Positions 40,554-44,461 of a DNA stretch of 64,000 nt are shown here, one piece after another; the stretch's first letter is position 1; the number at the start of each line of letters is the position of its first letter. A program made the translations under genes and the position numbers. The notes below the pieces were generated by a model. It did no database searches, had not been told where the DNA came from, and saw only the letters and a program-made list of their open reading frames with translations. This stretch comes from Escherichia coli (GTDB taxonomy: Bacteria; Pseudomonadota; Gammaproteobacteria; Enterobacterales; Enterobacteriaceae). The stretch lies in the NCBI RefSeq assembly GCF_046105845.1, contig NZ_CP151004.1, one strand, 5' to 3'.

Positions 40554-40599
40554 TTAATTCAGGCCGGGCAAAATCATTTGTCCGGCCTGCGAATAATGA

Positions 40600-41928
40600 T
40601 TACTGCCAGCTAATCTGCGCCCTGCCGTTTTTCTTACTCTTATACAGTCGCTCATCCGCCAGCATTTTCAAGCGTTCGACGGTAGTACATTCATTTGAAT
40701 GCGCTACACCGATACTGGTGCTTAAATTAATGCTTCCCACCTGGAAATGAACAATTTCTTTTAGAATCGATAGCAACTCTTCCAGCGTTCCACCCGTATA
40801 AATCACCGCAAATTCGTCACCGCCGAAGCGGTAGACTTTACCTTTATCTACCGGGATCTGTGATTTAAGGATTTTCACCACTTTCATCAACACTTCATCG
40901 CCCAGCAAATGACCGAAGGTGTCGTTAATGTTTTTGAATTTATCGACGTCAAACAGGCACAAATAACCGCCTTTTTCCGGCAGCGCTTTTAAATCTTCGT
41001 CAAAGGATTTTCTGCCCATTGCTTTGGTCAGGTCATCCAGGAACGCCGAGTTATACAGACTGTAGAGTTTTTTGACATCGGCAGCCGAAAAGAAAAGCCC
41101 GCCATCCAGTACGCGTTCAAAATGGTTATTAATGATGGCTTCTTTCTCCACAATACCACGATTAATCACTCTGCGTACCAGATAGAGGCAACTGACACCC
41201 GAAATCACTGCCACCAATGCGGCAAAGAAAATAATCAATGTACAGACCCGCAAATAAACATCTTTTTTATACGCAAATACGTACAATCCGGTCGGCAAAT
41301 AGGCGAAGTGCTCCATCGCTTCCGAAACGGTGAAGATGGCGTTTTTAGCATTAAATTCATCACCGGTCACCGGTTTACCGTTCTTAAACAGAGAGAACAT
41401 CAGGTTCTCGCTATCCATCGCCAGCGATTTTGACAGTAAAGAAAAACGCTCCAGACCAAGCAAAAATATCAGACTACGATTATGAGTTACCGGATAGAGG
41501 TAATAGACGAAGGTTTTACCGTCAAAAGAGATAAACCCTGTATTTTTGACATGTCGATACTTCACAATCTGCATAATATCTGCACAATAATTTTTCTCGA
41601 ACTCCTTTACCTGAATACATTCGTCACTGGAAATCAGATAAGGACCGACATCGTACAAATAAGAGGGTGAAACCGAGTCGGCGTAAGCTGTGCGTAAGCC
41701 AACCAACAGCTGTTCCTCCGTGGGATTTAGCGTGTTGATAAGATCAATTGCCACGCTACGCCGATATTCAGCAATATTTGCCACCGCAAAAGCAGTATCA
41801 ATAACGGACTGTTTCAGGCCATACACCCGTTCCTTTACCATTTGAGTGTAGATCCCGCAGGCAACTGCTGAAATCATGATAAAAATCAGCAGACTGACTG
41901 TAAGTACGAACTTATTGATTCTGGACAT
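40600..41928 (-). CDS. dgcI: Diguanylate cyclase DgcI (YliF), membrane-anchored GGDEF protein
   Basis: Intact GGDEF motif (RFGGDEFAV); N-terminal TM/periplasmic region; AT-rich. Confidence 0.9.
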
Positions 41929-41935
41929 ACGTAAA

Positions 41936-44284
41936 CTACTCTTTTACTAATTTTCCACTTTTATCCCAGGCGGAGAACGGCATGGGTTTCTGGTACAGAT
42001 ACCCCTGAGCCTGAACACATCCTAATTTGATTAATTCGCGCGCAACGTCTTCGCTCTCTACGCCTTCCGCAATCACCGGGATCCGGTTATAGCGTGCCAG
42101 ATCGAAAATAATGCGCACAATTTTTCCCGCAGTACCGAAAATATCGCCGGTAAATTGTGAGTCCACCTTTATGCTATCTGGATTAATTTCATAAAAACGT
42201 TTCAGGTTTGACAAACCGGTGCCAAAGTCATCAATCGATATCCGTACCCCTTGTTTACGCAGTTGTTCAATATTGAGATAAAAATGTTCATTAATTCGCT
42301 CGATCACGGTTTCAGTGATCTCAACACAGAGGCTGTTCGCCTTCAGGCCATTTTCTTCCATGATGGTGGTAAAACGCTCATGAAAGTGTGGTTCGTTTAA
42401 CTCCCAGGGCGAAACATTAATATGCAGTAAGAAATCATCCTTCAGCGACGCACGCTGACTAAAATGTCTGAATTCACCCATTGCCGTTTTAATAATCTGA
42501 TAACCCAGCTCATTGATAAACCCGATATCTTCAGCAATGGTAATGAACTTTAGCGGTGAAATGATCCCCCGCTCCGCAGACACCCAACGGCACAACGCCT
42601 CCGCGCCCAGAATGGTGCGGGTGTTAATATCAACGATCGGTTGATAGACGAGGAATAGTTCGCCAATTTCCATTGCATGGCGAATATTACGCGCAATCCA
42701 GATATTCTCTTCTATTTCGTTGAGTTTCGCGTCATCACAGAAAATAAACTCGGAGAACATATGGTCACGGATACTGGAAATCGCCAGTTTCAGTTTTTCT
42801 GCGTAACTCCAGGCGTTTTCCCCCTGCAAAGGTTCACAAATGGCAGACTTATGGATGCGCAGATTGCGGTAGCCAAAGCTGCTGTCAAAATCGTTTATCA
42901 TCGCTATTTTACGGGTAAATGTCTGTACATTTTCCCGGCACAGAAGTAAATAGAGATCGGCATTGAATGTCACGATATCGCAGCATTGCGCATATTTCTC
43001 GGCAATTCGCTGACACAATTTCCTGACGATTTTATTGCGTTCATCAACACCAAACACCGCTTCCACGGCTTCCAGACCACACAGTTTGATGATCCCCACA
43101 GCCAGATACTGATTATTGTTAGACTCAATAATCGCCATATTTTTAATAAAACCGCTTTCCTGATCGTAAGAGATCAGTGAGAGCAATTTATTTGACCGTT
43201 CAATTTCGGCATCTTTCATTTCCGCGATCGAATTTTTGATGCTGATAATCTCTTTCGCATCGCCTTCGCGAATTTTCAGAGCCTCGATCTGATCCGTTGA
43301 GTCGGGCAAAAACGCCAGCGTATTAACCAGCTCGGTCATTTCAGAAAATTGCCGACGGAACACACGAGTGGTCATTAAATAAACCACCAGCAATACGATA
43401 ATAATGAAAGCAAACGGCAGATAAAAAAGTTTATCTGATGCGTTCAATAAATTACCACCAGGATAATAAAAATAGATTTCGAATAATGCGTTGTTTGGCA
43501 CCGCTGAAGTTTTTTCGATATATTCAGTATCGACAGAATCAATAATATTATAATTACCTTCGCTATTATAAATAATTAGTTTTTCACGAGCGAGTTGATT
43601 CTTGGCAATGATCTCATGGCCTTGTTTCAAAAATAGAACTTCATCATTAGCGCTGATTTGATCAAGATACTCGTTCAGATATCGCCAGTTTAAATCGACA
43701 TGTATTTTATCCACCGCTAACAAATCGTGATCTTTGCCGTTGATGCGTAGCGTAAAAGAGATACATTTTTTACCCGGACGATCAAAGCAATTGTAGGCCG
43801 GATTCCAGCTGTTGTTAGAGTCATCTGAAGCCACCGACCATGGTCGTTTCGATGGATTAAAATCGGCAAAAATAACCCGCCCTGACTCGTCGACAAGCGG
43901 TCCATTTACTTCTTCCTGATGATAAACAACGATTTTATCATTCGCCCTCCGCGAAAAGAGATAATATTTATTATCATCAAGTACCAGTCCCACCGAGTCT
44001 AAAAATGGCATCATTTCCATTTTAAGGATCACAGCGCGTTGAATCTCCTCTGTATTTTTTAATAAATACAGTGAGTCCTTTAATGTCAGGGCCGAACGTT
44101 CAATATCTTTAAAGAAATAGCCAACGTTTTTCTGAATAAGTTCAAAGCGGCTATCGGCACGTTTTACCGCGCGTTCCAATACCAGTTGATAGTTAATGAT
44201 GAAAAAAAGGCCAATAAATGACAGTGCTGCCAATAAAAATAAAATTATCAGCCTTATCTTTATCTTTTCGTATAAACTCAGCAT
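41936..44284 (-). CDS. pdeI: c-di-GMP phosphodiesterase PdeI (YliE), membrane EAL protein
   Basis: EAL motif (GAEALCRW); start chosen at MLSLYEK to give about 782 aa (ORF track extends to 44362); AT-rich. Confidence 0.85.
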
Positions 44285-44461
44285 GTTAATACATTTAACA
44301 AAATAACTGTCTGAACGCTGTGCCGCTGCAAAAACAGTCCCTTGCTGCGGCTTTTTAACCAAATTACCCGATTCTACAAAATCAGCAGAAAGTTACAACA
44401 CTTGCTTAGGGCAATAATTTCCTGTGAGGTGATTACCCTTTCAAGCAATATTCAAACGTAA

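Follow-up and report, generated by a model that had tools for sequence, protein, structure and literature searches.

The 64,000-nucleotide stretch of Escherichia coli chromosome analysed here (hereafter the window, reverse-complemented with respect to K-12) carries, between gsiD and rimO, the pdeI(yliE)-dgcI(yliF) gene pair, a long-catalogued part of the Escherichia core genome that encodes enzymes annotated as a cyclic di-GMP (c-di-GMP) phosphodiesterase and a diguanylate cyclase. The best explanation of the evidence as a whole, to which a probability of about 0.85 is given, is that the two genes form a likely operon of antagonistic enzymes, in which DgcI lacks the classical inhibitory site (I-site), and that the pair entered the genus as an AT-rich insertion. 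E. coli possesses 12 diguanylate cyclases, and DgcI is one of these without the classical feedback site. The missing I-site, the intact EAL motif of PdeI, the degenerate GGDEF domain of PdeI and the plasmid homologues are already published; the modest additions made here are a comparison with the empty site in three sister genera, the family-wide absence of the RxxD motif, a compositional gradient and a structural check of the middle domain of PdeI.

The two coding sequences and the spacer that separates them are located as follows.

40600 to 41928, minus strand: dgcI (yliF) coding sequence, 442 amino acids (aa), membrane-bound sensor diguanylate cyclase (open reading frame, RefSeq annotation, Pfam GAPES2 and GGDEF)
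41936 to 44284, minus strand: pdeI (yliE) coding sequence, 782 aa from the annotated ATG, membrane-bound sensor c-di-GMP phosphodiesterase (open reading frame, RefSeq annotation, Pfam CHASE9 and EAL)
41929 to 41935, minus strand: pdeI-dgcI spacer, 7 nucleotides (nt), TTTACGT on the coding strand

The gene order of the window is lysO-hcp-poxB, the art genes, the pot genes, mdfA-dacC-gstB-yliI-bssR-rimO, dgcI-pdeI, gsiDCBA-iaaA-moeAB and, further on, mntR. An earlier interpretation made from the letters alone (the sequence-only reading) had delimited the pair at 40600-44284 and described two adjacent, co-oriented genes; these limits proved exact, since position 40600 is the final base of the dgcI stop codon and position 44284 the A of the pdeI ATG, and both genes indeed lie on the minus strand, pdeI upstream and dgcI downstream, 7 nt apart. 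A weak Shine-Dalgarno-like AAGAG is found ahead of dgcI, within the final codons of pdeI. RefSeq names pdeI and dgcI on matching DNA of 99.5% identity. The 3,685-bp stretch is present in 5425 of 5426 complete E. coli genomes (with at least 80% coverage in 5380 of them); its DNA is 98.5% identical to that of K-12, and the best match (99.5%) is an O158:H23 strain. PdeI differs from its K-12 counterpart at seven residues and DgcI at six, none of which falls within the catalytic or I-site motifs.

DgcI is an inner-membrane protein composed of a transmembrane segment, the periplasmic GAPES2 domain, a second transmembrane segment and the GGDEF domain. The following features were located in its gene.

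41242 to 41853, minus strand: GAPES2 periplasmic sensor domain (residues 26-229; Pfam PF17156, E = 4e-142)
40618 to 41046, minus strand: GGDEF catalytic domain (residues 295-437; Pfam PF00990, E = 3e-25)
40810 to 40830, minus strand: active site (A-site) R367-F-G-G-D-E-F373 (translation, alignment)
40840 to 40851, minus strand: vacant I-site V360-D-K-G363 (alignments to PleD and WspR)

The GAPES2 match is full-length (471 bits, with the cut-off at 27, covering profile positions 1 to 204, the whole profile), and 47 solved GGDEF chains match the GGDEF domain at E<=1e-5. DgcI and six members of its family were aligned with the GGDEF domains of PleD and WspR, the sequences of which were verified residue by residue against PDB entries 1W25 and 3BRE. 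In this alignment D327, D329, K332, N335, D336, H340, D344, R367, G369-G370, E372-F373, K432 and R436 are invariant with PleD and WspR, and the counterparts of PleD D327, N335, D344, K442 and R446, which bind metal and GTP, are kept; the RFGGDEF motif pointed out by the sequence-only reading is therefore intact (residues 367-373), with all catalytic residues conserved. At the position of the I-site, by contrast, PleD has R359-A-I-D362 and WspR R242-S-S-D245 where DgcI has V360-D-K-G363, and the same contrast is found with DosC (RSSD) and 5LLW (RDTD). Furthermore, E391 of DgcI stands in for PleD R390, the third of the primary I-site residues. The lack of an RxxD motif at its usual position, which had been suspected by eye, is confirmed by these alignments. 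No RxxD ending five residues before GG[D/E]EF was found in any GAPES2-GGDEF orthologue or paralogue examined: the orthologues have VDKG, LDKG or AEKG at this position, and paralogues of 39-44% identity have RREG, GFNF or a gap. The I-site is missing throughout the GAPES2-GGDEF family, and its absence is therefore no recent loss. As judged from these residues, DgcI is a cyclase with a complete active site and without all three primary I-site residues, in which product inhibition would be absent.

That DgcI remains subject to product inhibition through another, non-canonical site, formed by R272-V-L-D275 or by residues of a partner subunit, appears improbable. Secondary I-sites contributed from other domains are known in PleD, and R272-V-L-D275, the sole RxxD of DgcI, is retained as RVMD in the E. 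fergusonii-like orthologue. The search for a conserved I-site elsewhere in the protein yielded this motif only, and it was judged a chance occurrence: a protein with the composition of DgcI should contain about 0.93 RxxD motifs by chance, the motif is not conserved in the 39-44% identical paralogues, and its place is the juxtamembrane linker ahead of residue 295, where the Pfam GGDEF domain begins. In addition, the primary I-site positions are occupied by V, G and E, which are non-basic or non-acidic, and over-expressed Shigella DgcI gave the highest c-di-GMP level among the four diguanylate cyclases tested, an effect abolished by a GG to AA substitution (PMC11327459). This over-expression result fits an active, poorly restrained DgcI, without proving it. 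The literature agrees on the motifs, since Table 1 of Spurbeck et al. 2012 (PMC3484386) gives yliF an intact A-site and an I-site of 'GE' where the consensus is 'DR'. In K-12, DgcI was undetectable, and it was toxic when supplied from a higher-copy vector (PMC5635695). If DgcI is not throttled at the classical I-site, what would limit its output instead is expression that is very low and varies with conditions, together with its sensor domain and the co-expressed PdeI.

PdeI, the product of the upstream gene, is also an inner-membrane protein, with a transmembrane segment, a periplasmic domain that includes CHASE9, a second transmembrane segment, a signalling helix, a GGDEF-fold domain that is catalytically dead and an EAL domain of the active type. 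Its domains are encoded at the following positions.

43835 to 44176, minus strand: CHASE9 periplasmic sensor domain (residues 37-150; Pfam PF17153, E = 7e-62, 207 bits for a cut-off of 27)
42695 to 43135, minus strand: putative GGDEF-fold domain of degenerate type (residues ~384-530, after the second transmembrane segment and before EAL), with F440-N-A-D-L444 at the GGDEF position
41984 to 42691, minus strand: EAL phosphodiesterase domain (residues 532-767; Pfam PF00563, E = 1e-68), with the EAL motif at 42593-42601

Pfam domain annotation and inspection of the residues agree with the sequence-only reading that the EAL motif is intact and extend this to the whole catalytic set: E562-A-L564, R566, N623, E655/E658, D685-D686, K706, E740/E743 and Q760 are invariant in six family members. 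Loop 6, of the DFG-T/A-GYSS type, is present as D685-D-F-G-T-G-L-S-N-L, with L for Y, and the domain aligns well with solved active EAL domains, including TBD1265. Every EAL residue of yliE is likewise listed as conserved in Table 1 of PMC3484386. The EAL domain of PdeI is hence predicted to be of the active type (class I).

The region between the second transmembrane segment and EAL (residues ~384-530) has been termed a divergent GGDEF domain in the literature. By sequence it is barely recognisable as such: no Pfam match was obtained at E<=0.1, hhalign gave a probability of 0.15% and phmmer just 12-15 bits. An AlphaFold2 model of PdeI residues 330-782, built from a 48-sequence input alignment that included GGDEF-EAL proteins, has a mean predicted local distance difference test score (pLDDT) of 90.1 and aligns over 416-453 columns with the GGDEF-EAL tandems of DosP, PA0575, MorA, RbdA and LapD; in this model the middle domain is GGDEF-like in fold. 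Throughout the six family members the motif itself is degenerate and the metal and GTP ligands are missing. Given FNADL at the GGDEF position, the missing ligands and a motif that is degenerate family-wide, the GGDEF-fold domain is predicted to be non-catalytic.

This bears directly on the proposal that PdeI is functionally a c-di-GMP synthase, which would make the pair two producers. Over-expression of PdeI was reported to raise c-di-GMP about 11-fold, a rise that was lost with G412S (PMC11651652, eLife 2024), and this result conflicts with a simple phosphodiesterase role; G412 is the glycine of the PdeI VFGVD motif, the counterpart of the FGH motif in true GGDEF domains. The degenerate GGDEF domain, which has FNADL for GGDEF and none of the metal- or GTP-binding residues in six family members, and which the Pfam GGDEF model does not recognise, argues against PdeI itself being the synthase, and its EAL domain is catalytically complete. 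Over-expressed PdeI confers resistance to phage N4, as other phosphodiesterases do (PMC8669469), and suppressor mutations in pdeI restore the motility of a pdeH mutant (PMC12890032). Moreover, DgcI is mentioned zero times in the text of PMC11651652, so that its authors apparently did not take into account that DgcI or some other cyclase might mediate the effect. A synthase role of PdeI is accordingly rated as highly improbable, and the phosphodiesterase assignment is retained.

Both sensor regions contain a conserved pair of cysteines. In DgcI, C104 and C115 (41584-41619) lie within the GAPES2 domain and are kept in all seven DgcI-family sequences; in PdeI, C166 and C174 (43763-43789) are periplasmic, just downstream of CHASE9, and invariant in six PdeI-family sequences. 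These pairs could conceivably form a disulfide or act as a redox switch, in the manner of E. coli CSS-domain phosphodiesterases.

The 7-nt gap between pdeI and dgcI is identical in the species-representative genomes of E. coli, E. albertii and E. whittamii, and the order pdeI-like followed by dgcI-like occurs in three separate contexts, namely the core site, the bcs locus of E. ruysiae and plasmid pLH13-b-B. The retention of this order in three genomic contexts favours the idea, already put forward from the letters alone, of a paired synthesis and degradation module. The signals that could delimit the transcription unit are given below.

44371 to 44398, minus strand: candidate promoter of the sigma-70 type, TTGTAA-N16-TAGAAT, within the 177 bp that separate gsiD from pdeI (9 of 12 positions agree in a consensus scan)
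40560 to 40589, no strand assigned: GC-rich hairpin between the convergent genes rimO and dgcI (inverted repeat, 13-nt arms, 92% complementary)

The promoter candidate is kept in the otherwise diverged gsiD-pdeI spacer of the E. fergusonii-like contig. The RNA fold of the hairpin has a free energy of -20.3 kcal/mol (z = -4.1) and no clear U-tract, and it is likely to be a bidirectional terminator. Most likely, pdeI and dgcI form a two-gene operon whose transcription starts at a promoter between gsiD and pdeI and stops at the hairpin before rimO. Expression data are available for both genes: each is up at 37 °C compared with 23 °C (PMC12890032), and each is raised by BolA (PMC5605933). DgcI and PdeI may then act as an antagonistic source-and-sink pair of local function, with a separate periplasmic signal gating each enzyme.

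An RpoN site located between yliE and yliF is reported in a study by genomic systematic evolution of ligands by exponential enrichment (gSELEX). A sigma-54 promoter upstream of dgcI was considered and rejected, as matches to TGGCAC-N5-TTGCW in the window were fewer than in shuffled sequences. The best sigma-54-like near-match by yliE-yliF, TGGCACCGGTTTGTCA (42209-42224, minus strand), is coding sequence for the GTGLS of EAL loop 6 (DFGTGLS), and this coincidence might explain the reported in-vitro binding of RpoN. A literature search on H-NS silencing as the cause of low expression or AT-richness found no paper tying H-NS directly to yliE.

The pair differs from its surroundings in base composition. 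The pdeI-dgcI region has a guanine-plus-cytosine (GC) content of 42.2%, compared with 51.3% in the remaining window, and only 4% of the sliding windows of equal length are as GC-poor, all of them in a separate AT-rich island at about 10-13 kb. Relative to the 56 intact genes of the window (mean 0.521, standard deviation (SD) 0.034), pdeI (GC 0.415, z = -3.2) and dgcI (GC 0.434, z = -2.6) have the two lowest values. The deficit of both genes spans all three codon positions, GC contents at the first, second and third positions (GC1, GC2 and GC3) being as follows.

dgcI: GC1 0.485, GC2 0.321, GC3 0.497
pdeI: GC1 0.489, GC2 0.307, GC3 0.450
Mean of the window: GC1 0.592, GC2 0.400, GC3 0.572

When the related pairs described below are included, both GC and GC3 increase stepwise from the pair linked to cellulose (bcs) genes to the host genes.

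bcs-linked pair (E. ruysiae): GC 0.33, GC3 0.28
E. fergusonii-like pair: GC 0.39-0.40, GC3 0.37-0.40
E. coli pair: GC 0.42-0.43, GC3 0.45-0.50
Host genes in the window: GC 0.52, GC3 0.57

Such a rise looks like the partial amelioration of an AT-rich acquisition, which would have been strongest at third codon positions.

The distribution of the pair was compared across genera with GsiD homologues as anchors. In Salmonella enterica, Citrobacter amalonaticus and Klebsiella pneumoniae the neighbourhood moeA-iaaA-gsiABCD / rimO-bssR-yliI-gstB is syntenic, gsiD stands directly beside convergent rimO (at 90, 87 and 537 bp, respectively), and no GGDEF or EAL gene is present at the gsiD-rimO junction of these three species. 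Within Escherichia, both genes are present, with the 7-nt gap, in E. albertii (DgcI 93% and PdeI 88% identity) and in E. whittamii (DgcI 95%); E. marmotae yielded a partial PdeI only (92%), and named E. fergusonii has a PdeI of 69% identity. The order gsiD-pdeI-dgcI-rimO was read in E. coli and in one E. fergusonii-like contig (L083), which carries gsiC-gsiD-pdeI-dgcI-rimO with identities of 69% for PdeI, 77% for DgcI, 91.5% for GsiC and 87.5% for GsiD. PdeI and DgcI diverge faster than their neighbours, above all in the periplasmic parts; the identity is 63% for the periplasmic region of PdeI and 70% for GAPES2, compared with 87% for the GGDEF domain of DgcI. In a search of 1.84 billion cluster representatives, just two full-length relatives of PdeI were obtained besides those of Escherichia, at 37% and 32% identity. 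The sequence-only reading had described the pair as AT-rich in spite of belonging to the conserved gene order and had suggested an older horizontal origin. Its remark on composition is upheld by the GC and codon-position statistics, and that on gene order stands within Escherichia and fails beyond it, Salmonella, Citrobacter and Klebsiella being without the pair; the horizontal origin gains support from the atypical composition, the empty site in three sister genera and the plasmid homologues. Since the outgroup junctions are empty and several Escherichia relatives carry the pair, a single gain in the ancestor of Escherichia is the parsimonious reading.

Two of the contigs used in this comparison showed further peculiarities. 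In Klebsiella (contig L087, 7234-10570) the 537-bp gsiD-rimO spacer is GC-rich and repeat-like, rimO and bssR are separated by an extra gene for a LacY-type transporter of the major facilitator superfamily, and the annotated gsiD has 107 additional codons, so that genera differ in this junction region. On the contig of the E. albertii type strain (L005), a crude open-reading-frame walk recovered a pdeI of 694 aa, compared with 782 aa for another E. albertii PdeI, and the gene may be disrupted at its N-terminal end.

Relatives of the pair are found on mobile elements and beside cellulose genes. About 100 plasmid records hold DgcI-like proteins of less than 60% identity (around 40% among those listed), and plasmid-borne pdeI-like/dgcI-like homologues have been described in a preprint (bioRxiv 10.1101/2025.05.09.653004). 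On the E. ruysiae chromosome a pdeI-like/dgcI-like pair is followed by bcsA-bcsB-bcsC and then by a GAPES3-GGDEF-EAL gene, and in the one plasmid context examined, IncHI1B plasmid pLH13-b-B, such a pair lies ahead of an IS1 element and bcsA-bcsB-bcsC. These bcs-linked pairs share the architecture of the core pair (a CHASE9...EAL protein of ~780 aa, then a GAPES2-GGDEF protein of ~446 aa), as well as its order, orientation and tight spacing, the lack of RxxD and a phosphodiesterase with a degenerate GGDEF domain. They differ from it by an identity of 28-44%, a GC content of 0.33 and the presence of bcsA-bcsB-bcsC directly after the pair, whereas no effector gene adjoins the core pair. Their position suggests a local target, the PilZ domain of BcsA. 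The E. ruysiae bcs locus (L084, 17208-17341) encodes three c-di-GMP turnover proteins around one cellulose synthase, and its bcsC has 58% GC compared with 38% for bcsA, which suggests a mosaic origin.

From these comparisons, an ancestor of Escherichia would have received, between gsiD and rimO, a unit of ~3.9 kb whose AT-rich source was akin to the pdeI-like/dgcI-like pairs now found immediately upstream of accessory bcsABC operons on plasmids and in E. ruysiae, and the composition of this unit would later have been partly ameliorated; the direction of the transfer is itself inferred. The opposite history, in which the pair is ancestral to the Enterobacteriaceae and was lost separately in Salmonella, Citrobacter and Klebsiella, its low GC reflecting sensors rich in Lys, Asn, Ile, Phe and Tyr together with weak codon selection, is unlikely, at odds of slightly under one in ten. 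It would need three precise losses to account for the clean gsiD/rimO junctions of three syntenic outgroup genera. Nor does it agree with the near confinement of PdeI relatives to Escherichia among the cluster representatives, with plasmid homologues of still lower GC, or with the fact that other membrane or poorly expressed genes of the window are not as GC-poor. In its favour are the very poor expression of the genes in K-12 (PMC5635695), the deviation of GC1 and GC2, which is as large as or larger than that of GC3, the dgcI third position and the absence of mobility scars at the borders.

The last three of these points also count against the interpretation preferred here, as do several others. 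The AT excess is partly a matter of amino-acid composition, GC1 and GC2 being the most deviant; the third position of dgcI deviates least, with GC3 just 1.5 SD low; and no flanking repeats beyond chance-sized matches, integrase, tRNA or insertion sequence (IS) were found at the borders of the pair. The paralogues are just ~30-40% identical and therefore show relatedness, not the actual donor, and the Escherichia species with DgcI are those among the matches listed, which makes their number a minimum (at least these). As regards the operon, promoter-like sites are no more numerous in the region than chance would give, and the promoter candidate is without statistical support. As regards feedback, no biochemical test of DgcI product inhibition was found in the literature, and feedback may reach DgcI by routes other than the I-site. 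To these is added the c-di-GMP rise on PdeI over-expression discussed above.

A more speculative extension is considered doubtful, with about one chance in ten of being right: the core pair could be the orphaned form of a mobile module dedicated to cellulose synthase, in which the dead GGDEF-fold domain of PdeI, where the G412S mutation lies, might contact and gate the I-site-less DgcI as a trigger-type regulator. Gating of DgcI by PdeI would explain the paradoxical increase in c-di-GMP on PdeI over-expression, and PdeI would then be a trigger-type regulator of an otherwise unrestrained cyclase, more than a sink.

Elsewhere in the window, a very AT-rich insert of 2.6 kb (10296-12930; GC ~0.33, GC3 ~0.30) lies between ybjQ and ybjP. 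It contains an intact open reading frame of 600 aa on the minus strand (10506-12308), with weak, sub-threshold pentapeptide-repeat matches in Pfam. The insert occurs in 1921 of 5426 complete E. coli genomes, the window copy having at most ~96% identity to the best matches listed; the 600-aa reading frame is annotated as a truncated pseudogene in the closest genome, and the insert looks like a variable accessory islet.

In summary, pdeI-dgcI appears to be a genus-specific, horizontally acquired unit with relatives that travel with accessory cellulose operons. These results provide context for two questions, namely what DgcI and PdeI control, and how the claim that PdeI is a synthase is to be read; on the latter, the neighbouring DgcI is a candidate confounder in the PdeI over-expression result, and the PdeI sequence argues against PdeI itself being the catalyst.

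With regard to known systems, the genes studied here are the same as those of K-12 (DgcI, YliF, b0834, and PdeI, YliE, b0833), with the same neighbours gsiD and rimO and strain-level polymorphism only. In associating a dedicated cyclase with a dedicated phosphodiesterase, the pair resembles the local source-sink modules DgcC-PdeK and DgcM-PdeR of E. coli; this likeness is an analogy only. The cytoplasmic part of PdeI appears, in the model, to have the helix, GGDEF-fold and EAL order of DosP (PdeO), PA0575, MorA and RbdA, tandem phosphodiesterases in which the GGDEF domain is either degenerate or active, and the GGDEF domain of DosP is non-catalytic, as that of PdeI is predicted to be. The input differs, being a periplasmic CHASE9-containing module in PdeI and a haem-PAS, PAS or receiver (REC) domain in these proteins, and the GGDEF-like domain of PdeI has, in comparison with theirs, diverged so far that sequence profiles miss it. 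Finally, DgcI has in common with PleD of Caulobacter crescentus and WspR of Pseudomonas aeruginosa the GGDEF fold and all catalytic residues; unlike PleD, with R359, D362 and R390, it has V, G and E at the I-site positions, and a periplasmic GAPES2 sensor takes the place of receiver domains.

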